Virus genome (UHGV): UHGV-2036287
Length of the DNA stretch: 37,454 nucleotides
Reading direction: 5' to 3' (one strand)
Origin: a virus
Both the position numbers and the translations under genes were made by a program. Below the pieces are notes generated by a model that saw only the letters and a list, made by a program, of their open reading frames with translations, was not told the origin of the DNA and searched no databases. Below, in pieces: positions 1,045 to 37,454 of the stretch (position 1 is the stretch's first letter; every line of letters starts with the position of its first letter).

Positions 1045-1434
1045 TTACTCTTTTTTCTCCGTATCTACATCGGGTTCATCAGCAAATAGCTTGCCCTGCA
1101 TCCGATCCAGTTCTTCTTTTCTTACCCGCTTAACCACGCTGTAGACCCACTGAAGCGAAACACCAAATTTGCGGGCCAGTTCATGGTGGTTACGTCCGTT
1201 AAACTCCCTGAAGATTTCCCGGTCGCGCTGACTGACCTTCCATACCATGCCCATCGGGAAATAAACGTTTTGCCCGCCCCAGACCTGCATCATGCGGTTC
1301 GCGACGGCCTGACCAATCTGGTCGGCAATTGCGGGCTCAATATCAATAATCTCGCGAACGGTCTCAGAGGTATGCTGTGCCAGTTCCACCAGGAGTTCCG
1401 GCCCTTTACTTCGAAACTGATTCAGGTCGCTCAT
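1045..1434 (-). CDS. mor: Mor/C-family transcription activator (middle/late gene activator)
   Basis: 129 aa, same length as Mu Mor; C-terminal HTH (ELARKFGVSLQWVYSVVKR); last gene of the leftward early operon; RBS GGGAG 6 nt upstream. Confidence 0.7.
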   Translation of the reverse strand: MSDLNQFRSKGPELLVELAQHTSETVREIIDIEPAIADQIGQAVANRMMQVWGGQNVYFPMGMVWKVSQRDREIFREFNGRNHHELARKFGVSLQWVYSVVKRVRKEELDRMQGKLFADEPDVDTEKKE

Positions 1435-1858
1435 GTTTTACTCCCGCAGCTCTGCGCTGCCACTTCTTCAGTTTCTCAATAACACTGCTTGCCTGTTCAG
1501 TATTGAGCCAGCGCAGGGCGCTGATGCCCGTTTCCCGCTTGATCCACCGCGCTAATGCATTTTCTGAACGGTCACGAACAATGCCGGCAGCAGCCATTTC
1601 AAGCCATAGCGCACGGATTTTCCTGGACTGCGGATGGTTATCCAGCGGTAAACCGGAGCTGGCTTTTCTGGCAGGCTTAACGCGAAAGCCTTTCCTTTTC
1701 ATGGATTCCAGCACGCAGTTTAGTTGTGTGGTATCCATTCCTTTGGTTGAGGCTTTACCGGTCAGCCCCTGTAACATCTGGCGGTAGCTGTCTTCATCCA
1801 TACCCAGTTCATTACGGGCAATATGAATGAGCTGGATAAGACGTTGTTTAGTCATCAT
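1406..1858 (-). CDS. gemA: GemA-like protein (Mu gp16 family)
   Basis: N-terminus MMTKQRLIQLIHIARNELGMDEDSYRQMLQ resembles the GemA/gp16 family; start moved to the ATGATG at 1858 preceded by AAGGAG; position immediately upstream of mor as in Mu. Confidence 0.6.
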   Translation of the reverse strand: MMTKQRLIQLIHIARNELGMDEDSYRQMLQGLTGKASTKGMDTTQLNCVLESMKRKGFRVKPARKASSGLPLDNHPQSRKIRALWLEMAAAGIVRDRSENALARWIKRETGISALRWLNTEQASSVIEKLKKWQRRAAGVKHERPESVSK

Positions 1859-2063
1859 CGTTGCTCCTTCTGCCTGCATCACCGATATAATCGACATATA
1901 AAGGAAGTGCCACAGGCCAGCACAGGAACATCACCGACCAGCTAATCCAGTAACCGGCACCACTGTAACGTGAATAAAACCCTGAACGGCGGTGCAGTTC
2001 AGCAGTACACCAACCGACAAAACAATACCAGAACAGGGCACATACAACAGATTCAGCCGTCAT
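1848..2063 (-). CDS. Small hydrophobic (membrane) protein, hypothetical
   Basis: Internal Met of the 1848..2219 ORF; Trp/Cys-rich hydrophobic 71 aa; stop overlaps the gemA start (ATGATGACTAA). Confidence 0.3.
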   Translation of the reverse strand: MTAESVVCALFWYCFVGWCTAELHRRSGFYSRYSGAGYWISWSVMFLCWPVALPLYVDYIGDAGRRSNDDD

Positions 2064-2283
2064 TCTGAATATCCCCCCAACTGATATGAATATTACGGGC
2101 AGCAATGACAGGGTCTTTATTCCACCATGCACCTGACATGTATTTTTCAACCTGTTCGTGTCCGGCAATAACACCAATTGTGATCCCCGGCCTGACGTTC
2201 TTAAAAAAGGCGCGGGCAAAAAGGTATCTGGCAGATATTCGGCAGGCTTTTAATTTCCGGCTGTTACCTGATAACGTAATCAT
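2053..2283 (-). CDS. Hypothetical early protein
   Basis: 76-aa ORF whose start abuts the upstream gene's stop; no recognisable motif. Confidence 0.3.
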   Translation of the reverse strand: MITLSGNSRKLKACRISARYLFARAFFKNVRPGITIGVIAGHEQVEKYMSGAWWNKDPVIAARNIHISWGDIQNDG

Positions 2284-2963
2284 CTGGCCTCCAGTTTCTG
2301 CTGTTCCCGCCCACTGACCGGTCGGTGCAGTCTGACGTTCTGCCCTTCTCGAAACCCCGCATAGCGCGAGGCGTCGCCATTGCGACTTCTTCCCGGTTTA
2401 CGCGCCCTGGTGGTTTGCGTCTGCGGGTATTTATGTTCCAGCCACTGCTGCATCAGTTCACGTTCGTCATCGGTCAAGGCGAAGGACTGTATTTCACTGA
2501 TAACGGCCAGCACCCAGCCTTCAGCAAACTGGTCTCCACGGCTGGTGCGGGTGGCGGTTTTTATTCTTTTGTTCTGTGCACTGATATACTGCTGACGCGC
2601 CTTTTTCAGCTGACGGGCCAGCACTTCCCAGGTGTACGCGGCCAGTGCGGCCCGTTCCCGGTTGCCGTAGAACCCCACACCCGGATATGTGCCGGGGTGA
2701 ATGATGGAGTTAACACCAAATGCCTCGCGGATGATGTTCATCAGGCCCAGCATGTAGCGCGGCGGACGGAGGCTGCCTGTCGGCCAGTAGTGACTGATGG
2801 TTTCATCAATATCACTCATGGCGATGTCGGAATGTGTGATGCCGTGAACATCCATCAGTTTACGGGCGCGGCGCAGTGCCAGAGCGGCCTCGTGAGGGTT
2901 GCCGGATGCGGCCAGCGCCAGCAACTTTTTCAGTTTCTCAATGTGTTTATCCTGGTCTGTCAT
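2280..2963 (-). CDS. DUF2786-like early protein
   Basis: N-terminal KIEKLKKLLALAASGNPHEAALALRRARKLM motif typical of DUF2786 proteins in Mu-like early regions (from memory). Confidence 0.45.
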   Translation of the reverse strand: MTDQDKHIEKLKKLLALAASGNPHEAALALRRARKLMDVHGITHSDIAMSDIDETISHYWPTGSLRPPRYMLGLMNIIREAFGVNSIIHPGTYPGVGFYGNRERAALAAYTWEVLARQLKKARQQYISAQNKRIKTATRTSRGDQFAEGWVLAVISEIQSFALTDDERELMQQWLEHKYPQTQTTRARKPGRSRNGDASRYAGFREGQNVRLHRPVSGREQQKLEAR

Positions 2964-3265
2964 TGTTCAGTATCTCCGGTGTACATGACGCCCAGCCGTG
3001 CGGCAAGGCGTTCCAGTTTTTTCTGTTTGTGGAAGTCAATCAGCCGGTCCATCCCCTGAAGGCGCAGCTGCTCTGTCATGATTTCCACGTCTGCCAGCTC
3101 TGCCGCGAGGTCACTTTCGCTGCCCTGTCCGTTCAGGTTGCGGGCAGCACTGGCCGCCAGTTCAGCGGCCTCTTCTGTCAGTTTCAGGGCCTGTGCATCC
3201 GGACCGAAACGCTGCAGGGCCAGACGGTAGAGGGCGGTGCGGGTGAGTTCGGTGTTCCGTGTCAT
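2960..3265 (-). CDS. Small MazG-like nucleotide pyrophosphohydrolase-domain protein (putative)
   Basis: 101 aa with LKLTEEAAELAASA and LAAELADVEIMTEQL segments resembling the EExxE and ELxDV metal-binding helices of MazG-type proteins; by-eye only. Confidence 0.4.
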   Translation of the reverse strand: MTRNTELTRTALYRLALQRFGPDAQALKLTEEAAELAASAARNLNGQGSESDLAAELADVEIMTEQLRLQGMDRLIDFHKQKKLERLAARLGVMYTGDTEQ

Positions 3266-3274
3266 GCCGCGCCC

Positions 3275-3547
3275 TCAGTGTTTCCGGTCGACGGTGATGT
3301 TCAGGCCGCCTTCTGCAGTGGTTTCCACCCGGTACGGCACCTCGTGCTCTGCCGTGTGGGTGAGTGTGTTCATCAGTACCTGCAGGGCAGCCGCCTTTCC
3401 GTTGGTTGCCACAATGGCCTGAGCGGCCATGCTGATTAACGCCGTCAGGACGTGCTTCACATCGGTGAGGTCGCGGCATTCACACTCGTTGACATAGTGT
3501 TCAACAAGGGTTCGGGTGCGCTGTCGTGCTTCCTGTGGGGTAATCAT
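3275..3547 (-). CDS. Hypothetical early protein
   Basis: 90-aa ORF in the operon, coupled to neighbours; no motif recognised. Confidence 0.4.
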   Translation of the reverse strand: MITPQEARQRTRTLVEHYVNECECRDLTDVKHVLTALISMAAQAIVATNGKAAALQVLMNTLTHTAEHEVPYRVETTAEGGLNITVDRKH

Positions 3548-3738
3548 TGCGCGTCCTCCCTGTCAGGGCGGGAGAATTCCATGACGGGCACGTCCGCCGA
3601 AAAATGCTGGCTGCAGTACGGACAGACCAGGGTGACGCGTACCGCAGGGATGTGGTATTTACCGGACATCACGGCGATGGCGCTGTGAAAACGCAGGGCT
3701 GTTATATCCCTCTCGCACTGAATACATTTAAATATCAT
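3544..3738 (-). CDS. Small zinc-ribbon protein (two CxxC pairs)
   Basis: 64 aa with CIQC and CPYC motifs; RBS GAGGA upstream of the ATG. Confidence 0.45.
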   Translation of the reverse strand: MIFKCIQCERDITALRFHSAIAVMSGKYHIPAVRVTLVCPYCSQHFSADVPVMEFSRPDREDAQ

Positions 3739-3835: not shown

Positions 3836-4366
3836 TTACTGCACATCCTGCTCAAAAGGAATTATTGAAAAATCCTCAATGTCGCTTTTAATGGAAATAC
3901 CGGGAATATTTTTCACGGCCTCTTTTTCATTCAGGATAGCGTCTTTATTTATTTCCTCTTTTACACGAATAAAGCGCTCAAGCCCCAGACGTCTCAGTAA
4001 TTCAATAACATTATCCGCCCCACGGATACTGACTGATGGCGGACGGTTTCGCCACTGCACCTCGCCGGTGGTGAGGTTAGCGAACTTCACCTTCCCGTTG
4101 CCGGTCAGTTCATCACGGTGCGCCTCACACCATGTCTGGATACCGGACTGCAGTTCGGCCATGCGTTTTTTCAGGCTCTCGGTGAGCGGGGCATAACGTG
4201 CAGTGATGTCGCCAATGGTGTCATTCATTTCTGTTTCAGCCCTGACCAGTTCACGTTGCGCGTCACCAAGCAGTCTGATTCCCTCAATGACCTCTTCGCG
4301 TGTCCCCGGCACCCAGAGTGCTGCTGCGGCTTTGATACGTTTTGCCCCTTTTGTACTTTTTGCCAT
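3836..4366 (-). CDS. gam: Gam-like host-nuclease inhibitor (DNA-end binding)
   Basis: 176 aa (Mu Gam is about 174 aa); coiled-coil N-terminus and conserved C-terminal region; position downstream of A and B as in Mu. Confidence 0.7.
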   Translation of the reverse strand: MAKSTKGAKRIKAAAALWVPGTREEVIEGIRLLGDAQRELVRAETEMNDTIGDITARYAPLTESLKKRMAELQSGIQTWCEAHRDELTGNGKVKFANLTTGEVQWRNRPPSVSIRGADNVIELLRRLGLERFIRVKEEINKDAILNEKEAVKNIPGISIKSDIEDFSIIPFEQDVQ

Positions 4367-4393
4367 ATTTTATGACTCCTCCTGTTGTGCTGA

Positions 4394-4663
4394 TTACCAC
4401 AAAGATTCCGGCCACACGACGCGACAGCCGTGCAGTTCGAAAACGCCCTGACGGAAATGTCCCCTGTGGTCATGACCGGTATACAGATAACAGGCCTTTC
4501 CCTGCTCAAGCATGCGCATGCAATGCGCACTCCGGGAAACGCGGATGACAGGTTTGTTACCCCTGATGGTGATGCTTTGTACATCCGTGTTCGTCGCCTT
4601 AAGCGCCATAATGGCTGACTGCACTTTGCTGATTTGCTGGTTGATACCTGTGGTGGATTTCAT
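4394..4663 (-). CDS. Hypothetical early protein (occupies the Mu kil position)
   Basis: 89-aa ORF starting 3 nt after the B stop. Confidence 0.4.
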   Translation of the reverse strand: MKSTTGINQQISKVQSAIMALKATNTDVQSITIRGNKPVIRVSRSAHCMRMLEQGKACYLYTGHDHRGHFRQGVFELHGCRVVWPESLW

Positions 4664-4665
4664 TA

Positions 4666-5832
4666 TTAAACCCCTTTGACAACGTCAGCGTTGACCTGTG
4701 GAACCCCGATTTCAGCGGCCAGATTCATGGCGGCTATTACCAGGTTACTGACGGCCAGCGGATACAGCAGGCTGACCATATTTTTACGATGACTTCCCGG
4801 ATTGCTCAGGCGGGCACGTATGGCATCCACTGCGCTGGCGTCCATAATGTCCGTCAGTTGTTTACCGGCCCGTTGCAGTTTGAACGTCAGAAACTCTTCA
4901 AGGTTATTGTCCAGAGGCAGAAGTTCGACCACCTCACAGCGCTGAACGACTTCACGGACTTCCATATTGCGTTCAGACAGTTTTGTCGCCAGTTCCGGCT
5001 GGCCAATCAGCACGATGGACAGCAGTTTTTTGAAACCGGACTCCAGCTCAAAAAAGCGTTTGAGGTGTTTCAGTGTCGGAATGGGCAGACTGTGGGCCTC
5101 CTCAATCACCAGAACGTGGCTGAACCCCGCCTGGCTGCTGTCTTTCAGGACGCGATGCAACTGGCGAAAGCGGGCGTCCTGACTGCGTCTGATGCTTTCC
5201 AGTGGTGCGATGGTACTGATAATGGCTTCGGCAATCGCTGCTGCCTTCAGGGTTTTCCCTTTCACATCGTTGTCTTCCATAGCGATGATGTATGGCTCGA
5301 TAACAATTACCGGCGCATTCTCGCGGTTGATACGTTCAGTCAGGTCGCGGCGCAGCGTGGATTTACCCGCACCGGACTCACCGATGACGGCCATAAATCC
5401 ACCATGACGGGCTGTCTGGTACAGCGCCTCACGCACATAGCGGATGTCCGGGGTGGTGAACACATCATCAGAACCCTGCATGGCTTCGTCGGCGAACGGG
5501 TCACGGAAAAGACCAAACGCTTTTTTGGTTGCTGGAAATAACACCTGTTTTTTGAGTAACATATTCTCTTCCTCACTGAGGCTCGTTTTATCTGTGGTAC
5601 CCGCTGTACGGGGCGTGGCCGCGACCTGTACAGCATCAAAACTCTTCGTTGTATCAATCCCCTGACTTTCCAGCCAGGACGCAAGACGCCGGCGCACTTC
5701 TCCGGGGCGGGTGCGGGGCCACGCGTTATGATTCACAATCTGGGCCAGCGTGGCCTCAGAAACATCGACAGCTCTCGCCACCACCGCCTGTGAGATACGG
5801 GCCTCTTTCAGTTGCTGCTTCAGTACCAGCAT
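4666..5832 (-). CDS. Transposition ATPase, Mu B-like (AAA+; target DNA activator)
   Basis: Walker A GESGAGKST and Walker B-like VLVIEEAH; N-terminal HTH-like region; start moved to ATG 5832 preceded by GAGGAG (the ORF track begins at a GTG at 5871). Confidence 0.75.
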   Translation of the reverse strand: MLVLKQQLKEARISQAVVARAVDVSEATLAQIVNHNAWPRTRPGEVRRRLASWLESQGIDTTKSFDAVQVAATPRTAGTTDKTSLSEEENMLLKKQVLFPATKKAFGLFRDPFADEAMQGSDDVFTTPDIRYVREALYQTARHGGFMAVIGESGAGKSTLRRDLTERINRENAPVIVIEPYIIAMEDNDVKGKTLKAAAIAEAIISTIAPLESIRRSQDARFRQLHRVLKDSSQAGFSHVLVIEEAHSLPIPTLKHLKRFFELESGFKKLLSIVLIGQPELATKLSERNMEVREVVQRCEVVELLPLDNNLEEFLTFKLQRAGKQLTDIMDASAVDAIRARLSNPGSHRKNMVSLLYPLAVSNLVIAAMNLAAEIGVPQVNADVVKGV

Positions 5833-5842
5833 GTTTTCCTCC

Positions 5843-7612
5843 TCAGTTGCCGTTAACAATGCTGATAACACTGCTGCGGGCCGGCGTGGTCAGCGTGGCC
5901 ATGACTTCATCCAGTGCGGCTTCCGGTACGCCGTCCGGGTACTGTGCCGTTAACTGGCGGTAATGTTCCGGCGTCCAGGTAAGGCCGTCGGCGCTGAACT
6001 TATCGCGCAGGGCTTTCGCGGCCTCCACATGAGTCATGGGACGTTGTTCAGTGCGCGGCCCGCGTACGTCAGAGGCCTGACCGCGCTTCGGCATATAGGC
6101 CGGAAGTGTGGCGTCATCAATATGTTTATACGGGTCAAGCCGCCCGCCGAACGGCAGCGCCTTCGCCTTGCGTGCGGCAGCTGCATCTGTGGCGTTGTCT
6201 GTACCGGTGACCAGTGCTTCAGTTTCTTTTGCCGCCGTCTGCGCCGGTGTTTCCGGCAGGGCTTTGTAACTTTCGCCAAATACCGCCGCGCCTTCAGCAA
6301 AGCCAAACTCGTTCTTTCTGACCTCTTCGACCAGGAAGAACGTCTCGTGGCCGTCCTCACCGGTCAGAACCACCTGTGCCACATCGCTGCGCCACGGGTT
6401 ACGGGTAATCATCAGTTTTTCACCGACCAGTACGCCCGGTACCGTTGATACGTCAAATTCAGTGCCCCGGAACGAGACACGAAGTTTTGGCGTGACTTTG
6501 CGGAGTTCTGGCGCCGCCACAGCCAGTTCACGACATACCTCAACGGAAGGCGCTTTTTTCAGCTGCTCAGCAGTAATCTTCAGCCAGATATCCGTGCGGG
6601 TTTTACCGTGGCGGCTGTGAACAGCCGTGGCGTTAAAGTGGCTGCGCCATTTCGCGGCCAGCGCGTTGAGTTCTTCCAGACTGTGAACCGGCCGGAACTT
6701 CAGACCCGGCTCCAGCTTGCGTTCGATAATGTCTCGCGCCTTTTCCACCTGTCCGGTGGCGCGGGCGTTATGCGGCTTGTGCGCTATCAGGTCAATGCCC
6801 AGTGAGCGGCACATGTTTTTCGTCATACCCGCGGTGTTTGCCGAGCCGGGGTCGAGATAGAGTATTTTTGGCACGCCGTGCAGCACGTCTGCGCCGCCAC
6901 GCTCCTGCATGGCGTTGATAAGCACAGAACACAGGTTCTCACCGGATTCCGCACCCGTCACATACTCAACGTAAATCCAGCCGCTGGCATGGTCGGTAAT
7001 CTCATAACTCCACACGCGGTCACTGGCGATACGGGCAAGGTTAGCGGGCTTGTTCTTGTAGAATTTCGCGCTGTCCATCACCTGCAGCCCTTTGTGTCCA
7101 TTGCTCAAGTAGTAAAGCGTGCAGAGCGAGGCATCAATCTGCCAGACATGATTGGGATGCAGACTGGCCACTTCGGTATGCGGCGCAGGGGCATCCAGTT
7201 GTTCCGGGTGCAGGCCATAGTTACGCAGGGCACGGCTGATGGCATCTTCGGACAACGGGAAAAACTCACCGGTGGTTTCATCTGTTCTGCCTGCGGAGAT
7301 AAAGCCGTTAGCCCGCAGGGTTTCCACTGCATCCGCGATGGAATAGAGACGCTTACCGTTCTTGCGGGTGGCCTCACGCAGTGTGGCAGATATCAGCGCG
7401 GCTTCGTCGCGGGTCAGGGCGCTGCGCCCGGCATCGGCGCGTTTTTTGCGTTTATCAGTCACAGAGACCTCCTTCAGCCTGCGCAGCAGAGTGGCGCGGG
7501 ACATGCCAAGTTCAGCACAGGCAGCGTCGTATATTGCACCGCGTTTACCATGCCCCGCGTCACGTGCCGCGCGGGCGACATAAACCAGTCGTTCAGTCAG
7601 GGCAGCATTCAT
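5843..7612 (-). CDS. DDE transposase, Mu A-like (rve/integrase core)
   Basis: 589 aa; HVWQIDAS motif marking the first catalytic Asp; N-terminal HTH; RBS GGAGG upstream; followed by overlapping B gene. Confidence 0.8.
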   Translation of the reverse strand: MNAALTERLVYVARAARDAGHGKRGAIYDAACAELGMSRATLLRRLKEVSVTDKRKKRADAGRSALTRDEAALISATLREATRKNGKRLYSIADAVETLRANGFISAGRTDETTGEFFPLSEDAISRALRNYGLHPEQLDAPAPHTEVASLHPNHVWQIDASLCTLYYLSNGHKGLQVMDSAKFYKNKPANLARIASDRVWSYEITDHASGWIYVEYVTGAESGENLCSVLINAMQERGGADVLHGVPKILYLDPGSANTAGMTKNMCRSLGIDLIAHKPHNARATGQVEKARDIIERKLEPGLKFRPVHSLEELNALAAKWRSHFNATAVHSRHGKTRTDIWLKITAEQLKKAPSVEVCRELAVAAPELRKVTPKLRVSFRGTEFDVSTVPGVLVGEKLMITRNPWRSDVAQVVLTGEDGHETFFLVEEVRKNEFGFAEGAAVFGESYKALPETPAQTAAKETEALVTGTDNATDAAAARKAKALPFGGRLDPYKHIDDATLPAYMPKRGQASDVRGPRTEQRPMTHVEAAKALRDKFSADGLTWTPEHYRQLTAQYPDGVPEAALDEVMATLTTPARSSVISIVNGN

Positions 7613-7615
7613 TGG

Positions 7616-8527
7616 TTATGCCTCCAGCCCGTTAATCTGTGGCGTCGGCTCAGTCAGCCATGAAGGCGCTGCATTGCCTGTTGGCTCGTCCGGCAGGTCA
7701 AATGTGGAGCGCAGGCTACGCGCTGTGCTTTCCAGTTGACAGACCAGGCCTGCCATGAAGTCTCTGGGGGTATCAATCATGTTTTCAGCACAATATGCGC
7801 ACAGTGTCTCAAAAGCGCTGGACAGTCGGACGGCGATAGCAGATTCCGCCTCAACCGCTAATGCTGTCACTTCCGCCCGCAGCTTCTTAACCTCCTCATC
7901 AGGCTCAGGCGGCTGAATACGGGATTTCTTTTCCAGTCTGGTAGAGAGAGAATCAATTTTTTCATTTTTATCGGCGAGTACGCGCTGTTGTGCTGCGTTG
8001 GTTTCGCGCGCTTCGCGCAGGGCCTGGCGAAGTTCGCGTACTGACATGCGATCAACGTCGTCAAGCGTCAGGCCGGCAACAGTGCCACCATCAGCCAGTT
8101 CGGCAAGGTTTTCATCGTCTTCCGTCATTAACTCGAATAATTTGGCTTTTCCTAAAAGCGCAAACGTCTGCGCTTTTGACTCAAGTTGTGGTGATAAATA
8201 TTTTATTGATGCCTGCATCATTACCTGTGCAGTACGCTTTGACATTGATAATTCAGACTCGACAATATTTATGAAATCACCATGTGGTTCATTTTCTTTC
8301 AGTATTATCAGTCGTTTACCTGCCTCTAGCATGGCCTCAGCACTTTGTGCCATATAAAAGCGTGCTTCGTGAACAATGCGATCTCGTTCATAAGGCAGAC
8401 CATCGCCGAACTGCTGCATGATCTCCACGCGGTGTTGTGCCATGGTATTAAGACTGATGTTGAGATCATCAGACAGCGGCACCTCAGCATTCAGATCAGT
8501 GGACATTGGTGATTTGGTACGTCCCAT
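7616..8527 (-). CDS. Hypothetical early protein (coiled-coil rich)
   Basis: 303-aa ORF with strong RBS (AGGAG 7 nt upstream), ending 4 nt before the transposase start. Confidence 0.5.
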   Translation of the reverse strand: MGRTKSPMSTDLNAEVPLSDDLNISLNTMAQHRVEIMQQFGDGLPYERDRIVHEARFYMAQSAEAMLEAGKRLIILKENEPHGDFINIVESELSMSKRTAQVMMQASIKYLSPQLESKAQTFALLGKAKLFELMTEDDENLAELADGGTVAGLTLDDVDRMSVRELRQALREARETNAAQQRVLADKNEKIDSLSTRLEKKSRIQPPEPDEEVKKLRAEVTALAVEAESAIAVRLSSAFETLCAYCAENMIDTPRDFMAGLVCQLESTARSLRSTFDLPDEPTGNAAPSWLTEPTPQINGLEA

Positions 8528-8537
8528 TGATTACTCC

Positions 8538-9067: not shown

Positions 9068-9125
9068 ATGCGGATAGTTCCAGTTGGGTTATCATGTACT
9101 CAATATGAATAAATGTACTTATTCA
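9060..9125. promoter_or_regulatory. Repressor/early-operon control region with operator-like half-sites
   Basis: Perfect inverted repeat TGAATAA-N6-TTATTCA at 9106-9125 plus another TTATTCA at 9060-9066 overlapping the ner start codon, in the 74-bp gap between divergent ner and repressor genes. Confidence 0.35.
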
Positions 9126-9155
9126 AAATAAATAAATCAAGTGGAATTACGCAAA

Positions 9156-26760: not shown

Positions 26761-26824
26761 TCCTTTAATATCCGTCACGCGCTTCTCCCGACATACTGCC
26801 CTGAACTTACACAGGAGCACAATC

Positions 26825-30269: not shown

Positions 30270-31153
30270 TGTTTGCCGTACTGGGTGATATTGAGTTTGA
30301 GCTGATTACCTACTGGGACGGCTTCGAGGCCACGTTCGGCGTCGATTATGCGGAGCATGCCCGCATCGGGGGTAAGCCTGGCCTGCAGTTCGTCGGCGAC
30401 AGGCTGGACGAAATCCAGATAAGTCTGGTCTTCCATCAGCATTATTGTGTACCCGATGTGGAGCTGGCGAGACTGCGAACAGCCATGAAAGCCCATCAGG
30501 CACTGGCGCTGGTCTTCGGCAACGGTGACTATCGTGGCTGGTTCGTGATTACCGATGTGACCGCAACCAGCGAGCAGACAGACAGCACCGGTAACGTGCT
30601 GGCTGTCAGTGCCACCGTGTCTCTCCGGGAATACACCGGTGATCCGAAAAATCCTCTGCAACCACCGGCAATACGCACGAAGCTCCCGGGTGTCGGGGCG
30701 GTCTCCGGTGCCATTCCTTCACCTTCAGGGGTGGCGCAGTTCATCCGCAACGGCGTCAACTATGCGAAACAGGCGCAGTCTGTACTCCAGACCACTATCA
30801 GCGCCGTTCGGGTGACACAGAAAATGAAGGATAACCCCGTTGTCGCACTGACCCGTGTGCCGGGGCTGATGAGCGGACTGGGTAATATCTCCGGGGCTCT
30901 GGGGAAAAGTGTTCCGGCGTTTAACGCACTCTCTGAATCCATGCCCGATGCCATCAGTCTGGCCAGAACAGCCAGCGAAGCAGCCACGTATGTACAGCAG
31001 GCACAGTCTGCGCTGAGTGGTGTGGACAAAAGAAATATTGCAGGTGCTCTGGATACCGTTTCCGGGCAGCTTAACGCCGCCGGCACAGCATTCAACCGCA
31101 TGTCTCCGGGATTAAGTGCAATGGCCGCCAGAATACTGACGAGGAGTGTGTGA
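30269..31153 (+). CDS. Tail protein, P2 gpU / Mu N N-terminal domain-like
   Basis: N-terminus MFAVLGDIEFEL...GKPGLQFVG resembles the gpU / DNA-circularisation N-terminal domain family; start overlaps the tape measure stop. Confidence 0.5.
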   Translation: MFAVLGDIEFELITYWDGFEATFGVDYAEHARIGGKPGLQFVGDRLDEIQISLVFHQHYCVPDVELARLRTAMKAHQALALVFGNGDYRGWFVITDVTATSEQTDSTGNVLAVSATVSLREYTGDPKNPLQPPAIRTKLPGVGAVSGAIPSPSGVAQFIRNGVNYAKQAQSVLQTTISAVRVTQKMKDNPVVALTRVPGLMSGLGNISGALGKSVPAFNALSESMPDAISLARTASEAATYVQQAQSALSGVDKRNIAGALDTVSGQLNAAGTAFNRMSPGLSAMAARILTRSV

Positions 31154-31365
31154 TGTTTCTTGAACATGTTACCCGTGACGGAGAGCGCTGGGATTCGCTG
31201 GCATGGCAGTACTACGGTGACCCGCTGGGCTATCCCCGGATTATTGCCGCCAATCCGCACGTGGCCATCACGCCGGTGCTGCCCTCCGGGCTGTTGTTAC
31301 TGATCCCGGTGATTGAGGCTGAAGAAGCCCGTACAGAAGAGGATATTGCCCCATGGCTGAGATAA
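31150..31365 (+). CDS. Tail protein X (P2 gpX-like)
   Basis: 71 aa with the ERWDSLAWQYYGDP motif typical of gpX. Confidence 0.6.
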   Translation: MMFLEHVTRDGERWDSLAWQYYGDPLGYPRIIAANPHVAITPVLPSGLLLLIPVIEAEEARTEEDIAPWLR

Positions 31366-32494
31366 ACAGCACTGCGCAAGTCACATCAGCGTTAACCGGC
31401 GTCAGCGATGTGCTGACACCGGTGTTCACTCTGTGGTATCTGCAGAAAAACATCACCTCTGATATCGCGCCTTATGTCACCCGTGTGACCTGGAGCGATA
31501 GTCCGATACCATTGAGGTGGAGCTGGACGACACCGATGGCCGCTGGCTGGATAAGTGGTATCCGGGCAAGGGTGACACGCTGACGCTGAAAATGGGCTAT
31601 CAGGGCGAGAAGCTGCTGTCCTGCGGTACGTTCTCTATAGACGAGATCGAAGTGAGTTCGCCCGCTTCCGTTGTTTCTATCCGTGGGGTGGCCACCTCGG
31701 TTAACAGTGCCCTGCGGACTAAAACCAGTCGTGGTTTTGAGAACACCACGCTGGCAGCTGTTGCGGGGCGGATTGCCAGAAAGCACCGACTGAAACTGGT
31801 GGGCAGCATTGAGTCCATCAGAATCGACCGGGTGACCCAGTATGCTGAAACCGACGTGGGTTTTCTGCGCCGGCTGGCCAGCGAGTATGGTTATGCAGTG
31901 AAAGTGGTCAGTGACCAGCTGATTTTTTCTCATCTGGCCACACTGCGCAGTCAGGAGCCGGTCAGGCAGTTAAAACCGCAGGATGTGGCCCGCTTTTCCC
32001 TGCGTGACACCATCAACCGGGTCTATAAATCTGCAAAGGTAAAACACCAGAAAAGCAGCAGTAAAAAACTGATCGTCTACGAAGCTGATGGTGGTACCCG
32101 TGAAAGCGACAAAAAGCTCAAAGGTGGTAAGGTTACCAGCGCTGACTCACTTAAAGTTAACAGCCGCGTCAGCGACCCGGACAGTGCCCGGATTAAAGCG
32201 GATTCAGCACTGGCCAGACATAACGAATACCAGCAGAACGGCTCCCTGACGCTGACGGGAACACCTCAACTGACAGCAGGCAACAAAATTGAACTGGTGG
32301 GTTTTGGGCAGTTATCCGGGCCATGGCTCATAACCACTGCCCGCCATGCGTTTGACCGTAACAGCGGCTACACCACAGAGCTGGAAGTGGCACGGGGGCC
32401 AGTCACAAGAGGGAAAAAACAAAAAACTCAGAAACTCACGGTTTATCACCCGGATGGCAGTACATCGACGGTGATTAAGGAGAAGAAAAAATGA
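31353..32494 (+). CDS. Tail/baseplate hub protein, P2 gpD / Mu P family, interrupted by a frameshift near 31500 (possible pseudogene or sequencing error)
   Basis: N-terminal 50 codons are in one frame (stop at 31581-31583); the rest, including the conserved EVELDDTDGRW segment, is in the -1 frame opening at 31502; combined length about 380 aa matches gpD. Confidence 0.6.
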
Positions 32495-33087
32495 CTGGTG
32501 TCACTCGTCAGGTCGGTACGGTCAGTGCCGTTGATGCCGACAGGGTTCAGGCCCGCGTTCGTCTGCCTGAATGCGATAACCTGCGCACAAACTGGCTTAA
32601 CGTGCTGCAGCGCAATACCCAGGATAACAAAGATTACTGGCTCCCTGACGTGGGGGAGCAGGTTGAGGTGCTGCTCGATGCCAACGGCGAGGATGGTGTT
32701 ATTCTGGGCGCGGTGTATTCAGACGTCGATAAACCACCGTTCAGTGACAAAAATATCCGGGGAACCCGGTTTGCTGATGGTGCAGAGTACAGCTACAACC
32801 GGAAGACGCACACTCTGATCATCCGGGGCGGCATTGAGCATATTGTCATTGAGTGTGGTGCTGATGTGGTATTGAAAACACAGAAAGCCACGATTGACGC
32901 ACCGGAAACCGAACTTACCGGAGATCTGCGTGTCAGGGGTAAGCTGATTTACGAAGGAGGCATGGCGGGTTCTGGTGGTGAAGGTGTTACCGCGACCATC
33001 CATGGCAATATCGAGATTAAAGGGAATGCCCATGCCACGGGCAGTATGTTGTCTGATGGCGAAAACTCCAGCCACCACTCCCACTGA
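32491..33087 (+). CDS. Baseplate spike / assembly protein V (P2 gpV-like)
   Basis: 198 aa; OB-fold N-terminus and Gly-rich C-terminal region; gene order D-V-W-J-I. Confidence 0.7.
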   Translation: MTGVTRQVGTVSAVDADRVQARVRLPECDNLRTNWLNVLQRNTQDNKDYWLPDVGEQVEVLLDANGEDGVILGAVYSDVDKPPFSDKNIRGTRFADGAEYSYNRKTHTLIIRGGIEHIVIECGADVVLKTQKATIDAPETELTGDLRVRGKLIYEGGMAGSGGEGVTATIHGNIEIKGNAHATGSMLSDGENSSHHSH

Positions 33088-33141
33088 GCTTTTTAAACGC
33101 CTTTAATATCAGCGTTCCCGCACGGGGGCAATACTGCCCCC

Positions 33142-33489
33142 ATGAAAACAACCTCAGTATTCTGGCAACCAGCCCTGCAGGCTCCCGGCGAAATTGTCCG
33201 GGGGCTGGATGATATCCGGCAGGCGATTCAAATTATCCTGCGGACTCCCCGCGGCAGCGACCCGCATCGCCCGGAGTTCGGCAGCAATCTGCATCTTTAT
33301 ATCGACTGGCCTGTAGACCGGGCCATTCCGCATGTGGTGCGCGAATCCGTCGATGCCATCCGGCGCTGGGAGCCCCGCTGCCAGCTTATGTCAGTTAAAC
33401 CCGCCGTCGACGGCGAACATCTTACGCTCCGGGTGAGCTGGAAAGGCTCAGACGGACAGACCCGGACTCAGGAGCTGCTATGGCGCTGA
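33142..33489 (+). CDS. Baseplate protein W (P2 gpW / T4 gp25-like)
   Basis: 115 aa; position and size. Confidence 0.7.
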   Translation: MKTTSVFWQPALQAPGEIVRGLDDIRQAIQIILRTPRGSDPHRPEFGSNLHLYIDWPVDRAIPHVVRESVDAIRRWEPRCQLMSVKPAVDGEHLTLRVSWKGSDGQTRTQELLWR

Positions 33490-34583
33490 CAGAACCCGAT
33501 TTTATTGAACGCGATGCCGACAAAATCACGGCAGAAATGATTGCGAAGTATGAAGCGGATACCGGCAAAACGCTGTACCCGGCACAGGCAGAACGTCTGC
33601 TGATTGATCTGTGGGCCTATCGCGAAATGCTGGTCAGGGTTGCGGTACAGGAGGCAGCAAAGCAGAATCTGGTCGCCTTTGCCCGTGAGCCGATGATTGA
33701 TTACCTCGGTGAACTGGTTGGTGTATACCGTCTTGCCGCGCAGCCTGCCACCACCACGCTCCAGTTCTCCGTAGATGAGGCACTGGCCATTGATGTGCTG
33801 ATCCCGGCAGGCACCCGCGTCAGCGCTTCCGACAGCGTTATTTTTGCCACCGATACAGATGTGGTACTGAAGGCCGGATTGCTGCTGGTCAATGTCACGT
33901 CCACCTGTACCGAACCCGGTACCGCTGGTAACGGCTGGCAACCTGCGCAGGTCAGTCAGTTACTCGATGAGATTGATAACGTCGACATGCTGGTGAGCAA
34001 TCTGACGGTCAGTTCCGGCGGTTCAGAACAGGAAGACGATGACAGGCTCCGGGAGCGTATCAGGCTGGCCCCGGAGTCATTCACCAATGCCGGAAGCCGT
34101 GGCGCATACCGCTTTCATGCCATGCAGGCCCATCCCAACATTGTCGATGTTGCTGTGCTTTCCCCGGTTCCCGGGACCGTAGATCTGTATCCGCTGCTCA
34201 GTACCGGTCTGCCGGACGGCGGTGTTCTCACGCTGGTAGAGAGTTTCTGCTCTGATGAGAAAGTCAGGCCACTCACTGATACAGTGCGGGCTAAAACACC
34301 AGTGAAGGTGGATTACACCATTGAAGCCAGGATTACGATCTATCGTGATCAGGATGCCAGGTCTGTAAAAGATGCCGCTAACAGCGCCATACAGAACTGG
34401 GTGGCATCACGTGCCGCCACGCTGGGGCGTGATATTGTCCCCAGCCAGATTATCAGTGCATTGTCCGTTTCCGGGGTGTACCAGGTTGAACTGGTGAAAC
34501 CGGCACTGAGGGTGGTGGCAGAAAACGAATGGGCAAACTGTACGGCGATCACACTTAACATGAGTGGAGTGTCTGATGACTGA
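33480..34583 (+). CDS. Baseplate protein J (P2 gpJ-like)
   Basis: 367 aa; overlaps W and I genes as in P2-type baseplate operons. Confidence 0.7.
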   Translation: MALTEPDFIERDADKITAEMIAKYEADTGKTLYPAQAERLLIDLWAYREMLVRVAVQEAAKQNLVAFAREPMIDYLGELVGVYRLAAQPATTTLQFSVDEALAIDVLIPAGTRVSASDSVIFATDTDVVLKAGLLLVNVTSTCTEPGTAGNGWQPAQVSQLLDEIDNVDMLVSNLTVSSGGSEQEDDDRLRERIRLAPESFTNAGSRGAYRFHAMQAHPNIVDVAVLSPVPGTVDLYPLLSTGLPDGGVLTLVESFCSDEKVRPLTDTVRAKTPVKVDYTIEARITIYRDQDARSVKDAANSAIQNWVASRAATLGRDIVPSQIISALSVSGVYQVELVKPALRVVAENEWANCTAITLNMSGVSDD

Positions 34584-35154
34584 GCCATTACAACTCCCGC
34601 CACCGCTTGAGGGTGATATCAGTCTCAGGACGCTGGGAAGACTGGCAGGGCGGCTGGATAACATCGACCTGAGCGTACTGATGGTCTTTCTCGTCGATAT
34701 CGTCGACAGTTCTGCGCTGCCATGGCTGGGCGAGCAGTTCTCACTGTCTGGCGATGGCTGGGAGCTGGCGGAATCGGACGATGTTCGCCGCATGCTTATA
34801 AAAGCAGCCATCGAACTACACCGGTATAAAGGGACGCCGTGGTCAATCCGGGAAGTTATCCGCCGTTTTGGCTTTGGTGAAGTGGATCTGATTGAAGGCA
34901 CAGGTCGTCTCAGTTACGACGGCAATCGCAGCTATAACGGACTGTTTGTTCATGGAGATACAGCCGCCTGGGCGGTTTATCGCGTTATTCTGAAACAGCC
35001 CATTACTAACGATCAGGCCGCGATGCTGCGTCAGACGCTCGCTGCATTTGCACCGGCCCGCTGCCATCTGGCCAGCCTGGAGTATCAGTCTGTGGCCATT
35101 CGCTATAACAATACCGCCATCCATGATGGCAGTTATAACCACGGGAGCAGTTGA
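34576..35154 (+). CDS. Tail protein I (P2 gpI-like)
   Basis: About 192 aa from ATG 34576 (the ORF also has a GTG at 34564); upstream of the tail fibre gene. Confidence 0.6.
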   Translation: MTEPLQLPPPLEGDISLRTLGRLAGRLDNIDLSVLMVFLVDIVDSSALPWLGEQFSLSGDGWELAESDDVRRMLIKAAIELHRYKGTPWSIREVIRRFGFGEVDLIEGTGRLSYDGNRSYNGLFVHGDTAAWAVYRVILKQPITNDQAAMLRQTLAAFAPARCHLASLEYQSVAIRYNNTAIHDGSYNHGSS

Positions 35155-35156
35155 TT

Positions 35157-36449
35157 ATGGGAAACCTGAATGAAACAGAAAAGTGGGAAGAAAATATCTA
35201 TCAACTGGAGACATCAGATCCGGTTCTGGGTGGTGCTGACGGGATATCAAATCGAGCCCCCCGGCAACTGGCAAACAGGACGAAATGGCTGAAGAAAAAA
35301 ACGGAGGAAGCCGCACAGTCACTGGCTGAACACGTACGTTCCCGTAACCACCCGGACGCGACACTGACAGCTAAGGGGTTCACCCAACTGAGCAGTGCCA
35401 CCAACAGCACCTCTGAAACGCTGGCCGCCACACCAAAAGCCGTCAAGGCTGCATACGACCTTGCAGCCGGCAAGGCGCCCGTCAGCCACACTCACCCGTG
35501 GAGTCAGATAACGGGAGTGCCTGCTGCCTCGCTGACGGCAAAAGGCACCGTACAACTGAGCAGTGCCACCAACAGCACCTCTGAAACGCTGGCCGCCACA
35601 CCAAAGGCCGTCAAGGCTGCATATGACCTGGCTGCCGGCAAGGCCCCCGTCAGCCACACTCACCCGTGGAGTCAGATAACGGGAGTGCCTGCTGCCTCGC
35701 TGACGGCAAAAGGCACCGTACAACTGAGCAGTGCCATCAACAGCACGTCTGAAATACTGGCCGCCACACCGAAAGCGGTCAAGGCTGCATACGATCTGGC
35801 AAACGGAAAACAACCGGCAGATGCCACGCTCACTGCTCTGGCAGGACTTGCCACTGCAGCAGATCGGTTGCCTTATTTTACCGGAGCAGACCGCGCAGCG
35901 CTGGCAACCCTTACAGCTATTGGTCGCGCTATTATCGCTAAGGGCAGTATAAAAGATGTCCTCAATTACCTTGGTTTGGGGGAAGGCTCTGCATTGCCTG
36001 TTGGTGTACCGGTTCCATGGCCCACCGCCACACCGCCAGCAGGCTGGTTACAGTGCAACGGAGCTACGTTCACCAAAGAACAATATCCTGTTCTGGCCAG
36101 AGTCTACCCGACCCTCCGTCTTCCCGATTTACGCGGTGAGTTTATCCGTGGATGGGACGACGGGCGCAAGATTGACGAGGGGCGTAAGTTGCTTTCATGG
36201 CAGAAAGGTACACTGGTCGGCGGTCATGACGATAACGATTCTTCGCTGGATATCTCGTACATGAGTAACGGAAATAATATTGACTATGGCGGCGATAAGG
36301 TGTTTGCGGGGAATTACCGTAGCGATTATTTGTGGTACGCAATTCTGGGTGGAACAAACAGTCGCGCAAAAGCCGAATTAAACGGAGCATTCTTTAACAT
36401 AACCCGCCCCCGCAATATCGCGTTTAACTATATCGTGAGGGCGGCGTGA
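35157..36449 (+). CDS. Tail fibre protein (P2 H / Mu S-like) with internal tandem repeats and variable C-terminal tip
   Basis: About 430 aa; three copies of a 56-aa unit (TAKG..QLSSATNSTSETLAATPKAVKAAYDLAAGK...); C-terminus ends RPRNIAFNYIVRAA; the ORF track begins at a TTG at 35151. Confidence 0.75.
   Translation: MGNLNETEKWEENIYQLETSDPVLGGADGISNRAPRQLANRTKWLKKKTEEAAQSLAEHVRSRNHPDATLTAKGFTQLSSATNSTSETLAATPKAVKAAYDLAAGKAPVSHTHPWSQITGVPAASLTAKGTVQLSSATNSTSETLAATPKAVKAAYDLAAGKAPVSHTHPWSQITGVPAASLTAKGTVQLSSAINSTSEILAATPKAVKAAYDLANGKQPADATLTALAGLATAADRLPYFTGADRAALATLTAIGRAIIAKGSIKDVLNYLGLGEGSALPVGVPVPWPTATPPAGWLQCNGATFTKEQYPVLARVYPTLRLPDLRGEFIRGWDDGRKIDEGRKLLSWQKGTLVGGHDDNDSSLDISYMSNGNNIDYGGDKVFAGNYRSDYLWYAILGGTNSRAKAELNGAFFNITRPRNIAFNYIVRAA
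35364..35830 (+). repeat. 168-bp tandem repeats (about 2.8 copies) within the tail fibre gene
   Basis: Units starting at 35364, 35532 and 35700 are near-identical at the nucleotide level. Confidence 0.85.
36104..36169. repeat. Left copy of an inverted repeat (at least 66 bp perfect) inside the tail fibre gene
   Basis: 36104-36169 is identical to the reverse complement of 37389-37454; similarity continues imperfectly for about 25 bp further inward. Confidence 0.8.
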
Positions 36450-36455
36450 TACCGT

Positions 36456-37070
36456 TCAGCTGGCAAGTGCCAGTGGCGCTTCCGGCCAGCTGATTTCAGG
36501 TGCCGTGCTGATATCCAGTGCGTTCAGCTCGTCGATATAATCCAGCACGGCGTTCAGTTTTGCCGTTTCTTCTGGTGTCAGACTGCGACCAGCACGCAGT
36601 TTGAGGTTGATAAGATCGACGGACGCCATCGCCTGTTTCACCCGTTGCTGGCGTTGCTGTCTGGCAACCTCCAGTTCTGCGGCTCGCTGCCGTTCAGTAT
36701 CGGTTACCCACGCCTCACCGTTCCAGGTATCCCATGGCGTGGCCGGCTGTTTTGTGGTGGTGTCCGCCGGGTAATCACCCGGTTGGGTAATCAGAACGGG
36801 GTTACCGTTCTCCGTGCTGTATACCGTCTCGCCGCGGTGATCAGGCACATGCTCCCACCCGTTCAGCGTGGCAGTCCGGCAAACCACGTAACCCGAAATT
36901 GCCTCCGGCGGTGCATCGGCGCACGAATGTGCCGGAGTACCCACCCCAAGGGCGAGATACTCCACAGAGGATGAGGTGTATTCCCGGGTTTCCTCGTCAT
37001 AGTGATATACAGTGATCTCGCCCGCTACAGTGGCGATACCGTTTTCATCCAGAACTGCAGTGTTACTCAT
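36456..37070 (-). CDS. Tail fibre assembly protein (Mu U / P2 G family), opposite strand
   Basis: 204 aa; conserved C-terminal region (LTPEETAKLNAVLDYIDELNALDIS); translationally coupled (TAATG) to the upstream minus-strand fibre-tip ORF. Confidence 0.7.
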   Translation of the reverse strand: MSNTAVLDENGIATVAGEITVYHYDEETREYTSSSVEYLALGVGTPAHSCADAPPEAISGYVVCRTATLNGWEHVPDHRGETVYSTENGNPVLITQPGDYPADTTTKQPATPWDTWNGEAWVTDTERQRAAELEVARQQRQQRVKQAMASVDLINLKLRAGRSLTPEETAKLNAVLDYIDELNALDISTAPEISWPEAPLALAS

Positions 37071-37454
37071 TAAACTGCCCTCACAATGTAATTAAGTGCA
37101 ATGCTACGGGGTCTGACAGTGATACCCTTCGCATACCCGCTTCTGATAGAGGTCAGAATAGTAGCCTGCATACCATTGTCTGACATTGCCACGACAGGAT
37201 CGCTGAATGTTGTCCCGTCCGGCATTTTAAAGCTGCCCTCACGAAGGTCTGTAATGGAATCTTCATTGTTGAATCCCATGCCGACTATCCCCGAGGTTCC
37301 CGTAGTGTCCTGGTTATAATAATCCAGCATTGCTGTTCTTAACAGCGTTGCCCCTTGTGCGGACAGCAACTTACGTCCTGTATCAACTTTGCGCCCGTCG
37401 TCCCATCCACGGATAAACTCACCGCGTAAATCGGGAAGACGGAGGGTCGGGTAG
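37070..37454 (-). CDS. Alternative tail-fibre C-terminal domain on the opposite strand (5' end beyond the window)
   Basis: Frame open to the window edge; N-terminal part in the window (YPTLRLPDLRGEFIRGWDDGRK...) is encoded by the inverted repeat and matches residues of the plus-strand fibre; C-terminus ends RPRSIALNYIVRAV, paralleling the plus-strand fibre C-terminus. Confidence 0.6.
   Translation of the reverse strand, partial: YPTLRLPDLRGEFIRGWDDGRKVDTGRKLLSAQGATLLRTAMLDYYNQDTTGTSGIVGMGFNNEDSITDLREGSFKMPDGTTFSDPVVAMSDNGMQATILTSIRSGYAKGITVRPRSIALNYIVRAV
37389..37454. repeat. Right copy of the inverted repeat (truncated by the window edge)
   Basis: Reverse complement is identical to 36104-36169. 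Confidence 0.8.

Follow-up and report, generated by a model that had tools for sequence, protein, structure and literature searches.

What kind of mobile element fills the virus record UHGV-2036287, and by what route did it enter the bacterial gene that flanks it? The window, as we call the whole stretch of DNA analysed here (37,454 nt), had been read in a first-pass annotation as a mosaic transposable prophage resembling the BcepMu group, with Mu-type transposition and head genes, a CI-type immunity repressor, a P2-type tail, and an early operon that runs leftward from a central immunity region, the late operon running rightward. We are highly confident that window positions 883–37454 hold a BcepMu-type (i.e., Mu-like, "saltovirus") temperate myophage that was integrated by DDE transposition into the Escherichia coli autotransporter gene yejO. 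The affinity to the BcepMu group is carried by gene collinearity, by TG...CA ends, and by target duplications at many sites, and most of the earlier picture stands with it; the family of the transposition proteins, the order of the tail genes, and the left boundary had to be redrawn.

The left edge of the element lies inside the window. Bases 1–62 are the end of an IS1 element, and 63–882 are a fragment of yejO (Pfam Pertactin and Autotransporter) that is 100% identical to the intact yejO of many genomes, in alignments that end precisely at 882. Prophage sequence runs from 883 onward, starting TGATTAGAC..., and matches to E. coli copies of the prophage likewise begin at 883, with differing DNA leftward; the start had earlier been put at 1045, where the first gene has its stop codon and the element has no edge. 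At the other side, the window ends within an invertible tail-fibre segment, and, judged from the prophage copy of E. coli AR_0067 (99.3–99.97% identical over aligned blocks), ~850 bp are absent, which would complete the alternative fibre end and add an invertase gene of 573 bp and the right terminus. Read in the window on the left and in near-identical copies on the right, the element ends are TGATTAGACTTGAGATAAATG... and ...CATTTATCGCGCGGCGCATCA (TGAT...ATCA). The left terminus (883–1044) opens with 5'-TG and carries the subterminal repeats GAGATAAATG (894–903) and GAGATATTTA (917–926); each end has two such GATAWWT-centred repeats, at positions 12–21 and 35–44, with identical placement in the ends of BcepMu, so that the TG...CA termini with paired subterminal repeats of a BcepMu-like element are present. 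These repeats are likely transposase-binding sites.

Target duplications were found at every insertion for which both junctions could be compared. In six independent E. coli insertions, the 6 bases before the left end equal the 6 after the right end, all perfectly: CATAGC in wcaJ, CGTACA in phoA, GCCACG in a DUF2300 gene, GCTACC in the yaaU-kefF spacer, CTTCTC on the nagE side, and GCTTTT in rlmI. For yejO, the left copy of the duplication (GTTAGA, 877–882) is followed in the window by TGATTAG, and the right junction was traced by looking up the exact fibre protein of the window, which led to a metagenome contig (L019) that reads ...GCGCATCA and then GTTAGAccctatc, with GTTAGA, before running on into the rest of yejO. 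The empty yejO of strain K-12 (...gagtGTTAGAccct...) has GTTAGA once, and this comparison of filled and empty sites (window on the left, L019 on the right, K-12 empty) yields a clean 6-bp duplication; the right junction of the window's own copy would be expected to read ...GCATTTATCGCGCGGCGCATCA and then GTTAGACCCTATC (yejO). With yejO included, the 6-bp duplication accompanies 7 of 7 insertions, and E. coli shows nine distinct right-hand flanks; for seven, both junctions were checked, and the other two are present in contigs L018 and L020. The target stagger differs from that of Mu, because Mu duplicates 5 bp and this element 6 bp. As for the host gene itself, yejO was struck twice, by the prophage and by IS1, whose end at 1–62 abuts the yejO fragment and truncates the gene; separately, bases 78–226 correspond to the variable, host-derived end of the sequenced Mu virion record LR595867 (Mu_3F6), i.e., a packaged piece of yejO.

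A site-specific hybrid of P2 and Mu would offer a different account of integration, and an integrase with an att core just outside the window had been named at the outset as a finding that would overturn transposition. A serine recombinase gene does lie there, directly after the fibre segment in every full copy, and the tail proteins are P2-like, both as a hybrid using this recombinase as its integrase would have it. However, the protein is 190 amino acids (aa) long with Resolvase and HTH_7 as its only domains, so that in length and domain layout it fits a Gin/Hin invertase and not a large serine integrase, and its gene stands beside a pair of inverted repeats (229 nt in a full copy, arms 91% complementary) whose enclosed segment is seen both ways round, in the orientation of the window in AR_0067 and in the opposite one in E. 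coli E1433 and Ecol_745. A small recombinase beside 229-nt repeats, with the segment in both orientations, therefore indicates a Gin/Hin-type fibre switch as in Mu, of the Gin/Hin/Cin kind, and not an integration system. Furthermore, the element sits at no fewer than nine unrelated sites, with duplications of 6 bp and without an att core common to them, none of the 56 open reading frames (ORFs) scanned in the window has an integrase domain, tyrosine integrases included, and no tRNA gene is present in the window. We thus assign the site-specific hybrid a negligible probability, and transposition stays as the route into yejO.

The proteins that would carry out this transposition are encoded together on the minus strand. 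TnpA (5843–7612, 589 aa) is a DDE (rve) transposase of the BcepMu/B3 lineage, with rve as its sole Pfam match (35.8 bits), 69% identity to BcepMu TnpA (gp09) and 57% to B3 TnpA, and catalytic residues D160, D254, and E290 that are invariant in a 7-phage alignment reaching down to 32% identity. Its partner is an AAA+ transposition ATPase (4666–5871, 401 aa), a MuB analogue annotated as "ExeA family" (Pfam AAA_22, E = 4e-20; 59% identity to BcepMu gp08). This pair, an rve transposase and an "ExeA-like" AAA_22 ATPase, matches that of the BcepMu lineage in its Pfam profiles.

How far the pair is also related to MuA and MuB bears on a second alternative, that the element is a true relative of Mu and D108 (Muvirus) with MuA/MuB and a Mu c repressor. 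Kinship with Mu is certainly visible in Mor, GemA, Gam, terminase, portal, F, and G, all homologous to their Mu counterparts, and extends to shared PHROGs: TnpA falls with MuA in phrog_310, a remote-homology cluster, and the ATPase falls in phrog_296 ("DNA transposition protein"), which, like AAA_22, it has in common with MuB. The closer comparisons are against it. MuA carries the Pfam domains DDE_2, HTH_Tnp_Mu_1, HTH_Tnp_Mu_2, and Mu-transpos_C (4 of 4), and TnpA has none of the four, the window and BcepMu transposases both showing rve only; BLASTP of TnpA against MuA gave E = 0.4, and hhalign of the 7-phage profile against MuA gave a probability of 0.1. Searched against PDB sequences, both the single TnpA sequence and the 7-phage profile picked up only retroviral integrase cores (best E = 1.7e-5), MuA not being among the matches. 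Within phrog_310, the window TnpA covers profile positions 129–687 only, and therefore does not have the I-alpha operator/enhancer-binding part of MuA and the Mu repressor c. Similarly, the ATPase has no Phage-MuB_C domain, its BLASTP comparison with MuB gave E = 2.5, and a search of it against PDB gave no informative match. With 2.4% of the element aligning to Mu at the nucleotide level, a CI-type repressor, an inverted early arm, a duplication of 6 bp and not 5, and a sheath and tube that match P2 and not Mu, membership in Muvirus is very improbable, and the BcepMu-type assignment is the one we retain.

The "Mu-type transposition" of the first-pass annotation therefore holds in function and fails in family. 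Transposition is functionally Mu-like, with a DDE transposase, an AAA+ partner, TG...CA ends, and random insertion, but lies outside the MuA/MuB families, as the missing MuA domains, the E-value of 0.4, and the 6-bp duplication indicate, and in this it agrees with the literature on the BcepMu and B3 groups: BcepMu-related elements have an rve core, a close relation to Tn552, and TG...CA ends (PMC2628397), and the organisation of B3 differs from that of Mu by inversion of the early operon, with transposition proteins that differ as well (PMC5977238). An rve core with a partner AAA+ ATPase is likewise found in the Tn7, Tn552, and IS21 systems (TnsB-TnsC, IstA-IstB); the best NCBIfam matches of TnpA are IS481 and IS21 transposases, far under the cut-offs, and the GenBank note on BcepMu labels its TnpA a "Tn552/IS1604 rve transposase". 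Sequence similarity to these systems is marginal, however, and the window holds a phage genome, not a transposon. An AlphaFold2 model of TnpA, built on a 24-sequence alignment, was poor (mean predicted local distance difference test score 58.9, catalytic core below 50), and a Foldseek search of this poor model against PDB placed TnsB and IstA at the top with MuA unlisted, at template-modelling scores of 0.13–0.24; the modelled structure is thus at most suggestive of a place near TnsB/IstA.

Upstream of tnpA, two further minus-strand genes complete what appears as a conserved cassette. Directly adjacent is a DUF3102 protein (7616–8527; Pfam DUF3102) with homologues at the equivalent position in B3 (52%), BcepMu (40%), phiSHP3 (31%), and Bise (38%), followed by a 102-aa winged-helix regulator (winged helix-turn-helix, wHTH; 8538–8846; Pfam HTH_IclR; phrog_1368, "transcriptional regulator") that is present in 6 of 6 relatives compared. 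The wHTH-DUF3102-TnpA-ATPase cassette is kept, in sequence and in gene order, among phages infecting E. coli, Burkholderia, Pseudomonas, and Stenotrophomonas, with partial sequence agreement in a cyanophage, and across the most distant relatives the ATPase (46–59% identity) is better conserved than the transposase (32–69%). It is conceivable, though we think it unlikely, that the DUF3102 protein, together with the wHTH regulator, is a dedicated third transposition factor; TnpA has no I-alpha domain, the part of MuA that couples Mu transposition to its operator/enhancer, and such a factor could perform in trans what MuA does in cis, namely end synapsis or enhancer action. If this were true, phages of the BcepMu/B3 type would represent a mechanistically separate form of replicative transposition, with a 6-bp stagger.

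Gene content and order across the whole element lead to the same placement. Searching 55 translated window genes against BcepMu, Mu, and P2 (the whole-prophage comparison that the first-pass annotation had proposed as a check) showed collinearity with BcepMu and matches to Mu and P2 that are confined to modules. For BcepMu (NC_005882), 40 of the 55 genes have counterparts that keep their order and orientation, with 31–76% aa identity (TnpA 69%, ATPase 59%, large terminase subunit (TerL) 63%, sheath 76%). Only Mor (31%), GemA (36%), Gam (61%), TerL (49%), portal (27%), F (48%), G (29%), and, weakly, gp47 have matches in Mu, and only tail proteins have matches in P2 (sheath 33%, tube 29%, U 25%, D 33%, V 28%, W 39%, J 33%, I 26%, and H 50%). 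The gene order of BcepMu recurs throughout, on the minus strand from Mor and GemA through ATPase, TnpA, a DUF3102-like protein (gp10), a wHTH regulator (gp12), and a gp16-like helix-turn-helix (HTH) protein, and on the plus strand through repressor, lysis, Mu-type head, and P2-type tail. Differences are nevertheless clear: the repressors are unrelated, Gam, Dam, the invertible fibre segment, and its invertase are found in the window phage and not in BcepMu, and BcepMu has acyltransferase, SSB-like, and HU-like genes that the window phage does not have. BcepMu was reportedly described by Summer et al. in 2004 (J Mol Biol 340:49); the BcepMu family with its inverted early arm, distinct transposase lineage, Mu-like head, and P2-like tail, and with them the features that the first-pass annotation had singled out, are reported to date from publications of that year.

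The divergent layout itself, with early genes leftward from a central immunity region and late genes rightward, was confirmed as first proposed. Minus-strand early genes run unbroken from 9067 down to 1045, in the order Ner-like, wHTH, DUF3102, TnpA, AAA+ ATPase, a small ORF, Gam, six small ORFs, GemA, and Mor, and the lysis, head, and tail genes occupy the plus strand from 13391 to 36449. This is unlike Mu, in which genes after the repressor run in one direction, and Mu further differs in having two Mor/C-family genes where one was found in the window, in com/mom, which are absent from the full copy of the window phage in AR_0067, and in its sheath and tube, which in the window phage are P2-type. 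Shared with Mu are the pairing of transposase and AAA+ ATPase, the Gam, GemA, and Mor genes, ends of the TG...CA form, random insertion that leaves a short duplication, terminase/portal/F/G, a Gin-type invertible fibre segment, and the functional order of the tail (sheath, tube, chaperone, tape measure, hub, spike, wedge, fibre). The B3 phage (NC_006548) resembles the window phage in its inverted early arm, its wHTH-DUF3102-TnpA-ATPase cassette (TnpA 57%, DUF3102 52%, ATPase 55%), its BcepMu-like lysis genes, and its Mu-like head genes, but it is a siphovirus with a non-contractile tail and has no P2-type genes.

With P2, nine tail proteins are homologous at 25–50% identity, and an E-family chaperone (Phage_TAC_7) with an overlapping extension ORF is shared as well; the capsid, terminase, integrase, cox/C, and replication genes of P2 are not present in the window phage, which also has no tyrosine integrase with attP and no Q-P-O-N-M-L block, and tblastn found no match to P2 beyond the tail genes. 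The P2-type tail of the first-pass annotation is accordingly right for the proteins and wrong for the arrangement: the gene order it listed is that of Mu and BcepMu, in one block, whereas in P2 a V-W-J-I-H-G operon lies upstream of FI-FII-E-T-U-D and X is found among the head and lysis genes. Nor does the "G" that closed the listed rightward order belong to it, since this fibre-assembly gene (36456–37070) lies on the minus strand, inside the invertible segment.

Nucleotide alignments show how close the nearest relatives are. PhiKM (PQ738613) aligns over 89% of the element at 97.5% identity, BcepMu over 30% at 68%, Mu over 2.4%, and P2 over 1%. PhiKM, Klebsiella phage KP12 (OM835952; ~86% identical to the element), Phi06_2974 B, and the AR_0067 and EC958 prophages are essentially the window phage, and such close relatives differ in insertion site, in the number of fibre repeats, and in the orientation of the fibre segment; PhiKM has, in addition, another immunity/accessory block, the 8.8–11 kb stretch of the window being unmatched in it. 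A literature search found no paper on PhiKM or KP12. Nucleotide similarity to BcepMu is ~20%, well under the 70% that serves as the genus line in ICTV practice, and by this rule the lineage in E. coli would form a genus of its own among the BcepMu-like phages; GenBank taxonomy files PhiKM under Bcepmuvirus. The phage type as such is already known, near-identical phages and prophages having been deposited.

It is also common. The transposase gene was found in 637 of 5426 complete E. coli genomes (about 1 in 8), at up to 3 copies per genome and nearly always on the chromosome, and close homologues extend across Enterobacterales and Burkholderia; among the E. coli carriers of the phage type is strain EC958 of sequence type 131. 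At its landing sites the prophage inactivates host genes, yejO here and wcaJ, phoA, and rlmI elsewhere. The labels that annotation pipelines attach, "integrase" for the transposase and "ExeA family" for the ATPase, can mislead, and the 6-bp duplication together with the shared end repeats provides simple rules for delimiting such prophages.

How the phage might be controlled can be proposed from its immunity region and from repeated motifs. The CI-type immunity repressor (9141–9572, plus strand, 138–143 aa; Pfam Phage_CI_repr, E = 1.2e-17) has an N-terminal HTH only, without a peptidase S24 domain, and the earlier view that it is CI-type rather than Mu c-type proved correct, as Mu c carries HTH_Tnp_Mu_1; the BcepMu repressor carries HTH_3/HTH_31, and a comparison of the window repressor with it gave no match. 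The divergent control region (9068–9165) contains three ~18-nt repeats TAYKCAAWATRAATAA (9097–9114, 9120–9137, and 9148–9165), detected by a repeat search and as an inverted repeat, and these are candidate operators within ~90 bp. On its other side starts the first early gene (8843–9067, minus strand), encoding a 74-aa Ner/Cro-like HTH protein of the BcepMu gp16 family (phrog_8503; phrog_925, "HTH DNA binding protein"), for which NCBIfam BcepMu_gp16 scored 29.1 bits, under its cut-off of 34. A generic sigma-70 scan of 8.8–13.5 kb returned 5 promoter-like sites vs. 7.3 in shuffled sequence, and we propose no promoter on this basis. An Rfam scan gave no RNA gene match.

An 18-nt motif, TTAANNNNCTTTAAWATC, is found three times without mismatch, each time on the plus strand and between genes: before the holin gene (13371–13388), before the tail-chaperone gene (26755–26772), and before the baseplate W gene (33093–33110). 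The number expected is 0.17 even with two mismatches, a count test that is partly circular in that the pattern was derived from the tested sites. A related motif, GATTAAAATCACC, stands in the G-I gap of the window (~20845–20862), and BcepMu has equivalents in GGCTTTAATATC (V-W gap) and GATTAAAAGACC (before the holin gene and before the protease gene). We regard the three sites as candidate Mor-dependent late promoters; late genes are probably Mor-dependent because a single Mor/C-family gene was found, as the leftmost gene of the early operon.

Taken together, these elements would fit the following cycle. The CI-type repressor would bind the repeats of the ~90-bp divergent region and keep the leftward early promoter off; upon derepression, an early transcript would supply the Ner-like protein, wHTH, DUF3102, TnpA, the AAA+ ATPase, Gam, GemA, and, lastly, Mor. 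TnpA, acting on the paired end repeats with the ATPase picking targets, would then bring about integration and replicative transposition with a 6-bp stagger, and Mor would turn on several rightward late promoters, with the TTAANNNNCTTTAAWATC sites before the holin, chaperone, and W genes as candidates. The Mu-type terminase would package by headful, host DNA included at the ends, and the Gin/Hin-type invertase just past the window would flip the fibre segment for a host-range switch.

Several points weigh against the account given so far. First, the right end of the window's copy lies off the window, and its duplication is completed by a second contig (L019) at the same site. Second, the operator and late-promoter sites, together with the frameshift site of the tail chaperone described below, are candidates recognised by their base patterns. 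Third, this copy may be defective or imperfectly assembled, as it contains both a gap and a deletion. The gap is a run of 31 N at 12875–12905 that stands in place of 41 bases of AR_0067, within a gene of phrog_3787 that encodes 242 aa and gives a weak P-loop signal; we considered and rejected a real disruption of this gene (12590–13308), the run being an assembly gap or a mask. The deletion removes 13 bp (AACATCAAAAATG) at 31500 and frameshifts the gene for the gpD-type baseplate hub (31353–32494, plus strand; Pfam Phage_GPD), which is left as two ORFs, and the window copy is therefore probably unable to build tails, if the deletion is real.

This raises the possibility that the element is BcepMu-type by origin but that the window copy is a defective remnant yielding no infectious particles. 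Besides the broken hub gene, which is essential, lesions of other kinds occur in further E. coli copies: IS100 sits inside tnpA in E1433 (6026–9754), gam has an internal stop in FDAARGOS_1258 (3999–4529), and the capsid gene is frameshifted in A31 (22236–23191). These independent lesions suggest frequent decay after insertion. The truncation of yejO by IS1 beside the window copy also speaks for a remnant. Every other gene of the window copy is intact, however, and the hub gene is whole (384 aa) in AR_0067, whose copy is near-identical, in PhiKM, and in contigs L018–L021, among them L019 with its insertion at the same site; the deletion could also be an assembly error, given that the window has an N run as well. 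We consider a defective remnant a serious possibility, although we lean slightly away from it, and it would leave the BcepMu-type origin as it stands.

Among the remaining early genes, all on the minus strand, the last is that of the Mor/C-family late activator (1045–1434; Pfam Mor, E = 1.3e-43; 54% identity to BcepMu gp01, 31% to Mu Mor), preceded by a GemA homologue (1406–1897; Pfam GemA, E = 1.4e-40; 45% BcepMu, 36% Mu). Six small genes (1848–3738) follow toward the right, including, by Pfam and PHROG matches, a DUF2786/DUF7168 gene (2280–2963) and one resembling nucleoside triphosphate pyrophosphohydrolases (2960–3265), and none of the six has a match in BcepMu, Mu, or P2. The host-nuclease inhibitor Gam (3836–4366; Pfam Phage_Mu_Gam, E = 1.9e-40) is 61% identical to Mu Gam, with no BcepMu match, and a small ORF of 89 aa (4394–4663; phrog_2041, unknown function) separates it from the ATPase gene.

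Between the immunity and late genes, 9.6–13.3 kb form a mixed-orientation accessory block. Adjoining the repressor gene are two low-GC (41%) plus-strand ORFs of 297 and 153 aa (9695–10985), picked out by composition and assigned to PHROGs of unknown function; they gave no significant Pfam, PADLOC, or NCBIfam match and may be lysogenic-conversion or exclusion cargo. A Dam-type N6-adenine DNA methyltransferase follows on the minus strand (11038–11895; Pfam MethyltransfD12, E = 1.2e-29; PADLOC MTase_II, E = 1.4e-112), and the block closes with accessory ORFs (11996–13308) of 71 aa (minus strand) and 134 aa (plus strand) and the minus-strand phrog_3787 gene that holds the N run.

The late genes begin with a lysis cassette of holin, SLT transglycosylase endolysin, and spanin-like lipoprotein (13391–15166; Pfam Holin_2-3 and SLT; 50%, 61%, and 31% identity to BcepMu gp21–23) and two small conserved ORFs (15163–15800; 52% and 57% to BcepMu gp25 and gp26). 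A Mu-type head and packaging module, as the first-pass annotation had recognised, comes next, with small (gp27) and large (gp28) terminase subunits (15800–17937; Pfam Phage_Mu_Gp27, E = 1.3e-56; TerL 63% BcepMu, 49% Mu) and a Mu-type portal, a Mu F-like head protein, and a Mu G-like virion morphogenesis protein (17937–20696; Portal_Mu, E = 2.9e-90, Phage_Mu_F, and Phage_tail_S; 27%, 48%, and 29% to Mu). These are followed by a head maturation protease/scaffold and the major capsid protein (20911–22994; phrog_976 and phrog_1005; 50% and 44% to BcepMu gp32 and gp34) and by head decoration/completion and neck genes (23004–24505), namely a cement-like protein (Pfam Phage_cement_2), Phage_Mu_Gp36, Gp37, and an 84-aa ORF. 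In the gap between the Mu G-like and protease genes (~20740–20790), a hairpin around TTTATAAAGGCTTTAC that precedes a T-rich run is also found in BcepMu (~18730–18770). This central gap corresponds to the position of the strong gyrase site of Mu; we do not claim it as the equivalent of that site, the structure being at least as terminator-like.

Tail genes, all on the plus strand up to the fibre, start with a contractile sheath and tube of P2 FI/FII type (24495–26443; Phage_sheath_1 and Phage_tube; 76% and 67% BcepMu, 33% and 29% P2, no Mu match). Then come (26446–27242) a 93-aa ORF, a tail chaperone of the E/gp41 family (26825–27160; Phage_TAC_7, E = 3.5e-22), and an extension ORF overlapping it (26985–27242). 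The extension lies in the +1/-2 frame, as against -1 for P2 E/E', and frameshifting may occur at a G5 run (27149–27153) just ahead of the stop codon of the chaperone gene, a candidate slip site. The tape measure protein (27318–30269; Pfam PhageMin_Tail) has a 261-bp (87-aa) tandem repeat in its gene (29134–29668; Tandem Repeats Finder), and among E. coli copies the protein is 821, 983, or 1070 aa long, so that tail-length variants are implied. A 294-aa GpU-domain tail protein and tail protein X (30269–31365; Pfam Phage_P2_GpU, E = 4.3e-39, and Phage_tail_X) precede the hub gene, and baseplate proteins V, W (gp25), J, and I (32491–35154; Pfam Phage_base_V, GPW_gp25, Baseplate_J, and Tail_P2_I) follow it.

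The tail fibre gene (35151–36449; Phage_fiber_2 and Collar; 50% identity to P2 H) consists of a constant N-terminal part, 168-bp repeats (35385–35801; Tandem Repeats Finder), and a variable C-terminal end. Of the fibre switch, the window itself contains the left inverted repeat (35971–36196) and part of the right one, which starts at 37365 and runs past the window end, the invertase gene lying outside. Within the segment, the minus strand encodes the tail fibre assembly (chaperone) protein (36456–37070; Pfam Caudo_TAP, E = 3.5e-28) and an alternative fibre C-terminal segment (37070–37454) that is cut by the window end and equals the 160-aa minus-strand "phage tail protein" of AR_0067. The invertible segment (35971–37454 in the window, 37474–39096 in L002) has one fibre-assembly gene, here antisense to the fibre gene, so that production of the present fibre end would lack a chaperone from the same transcript. 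Among further E. coli copies, S21EC and A31 have two or three alternative fibre ends.

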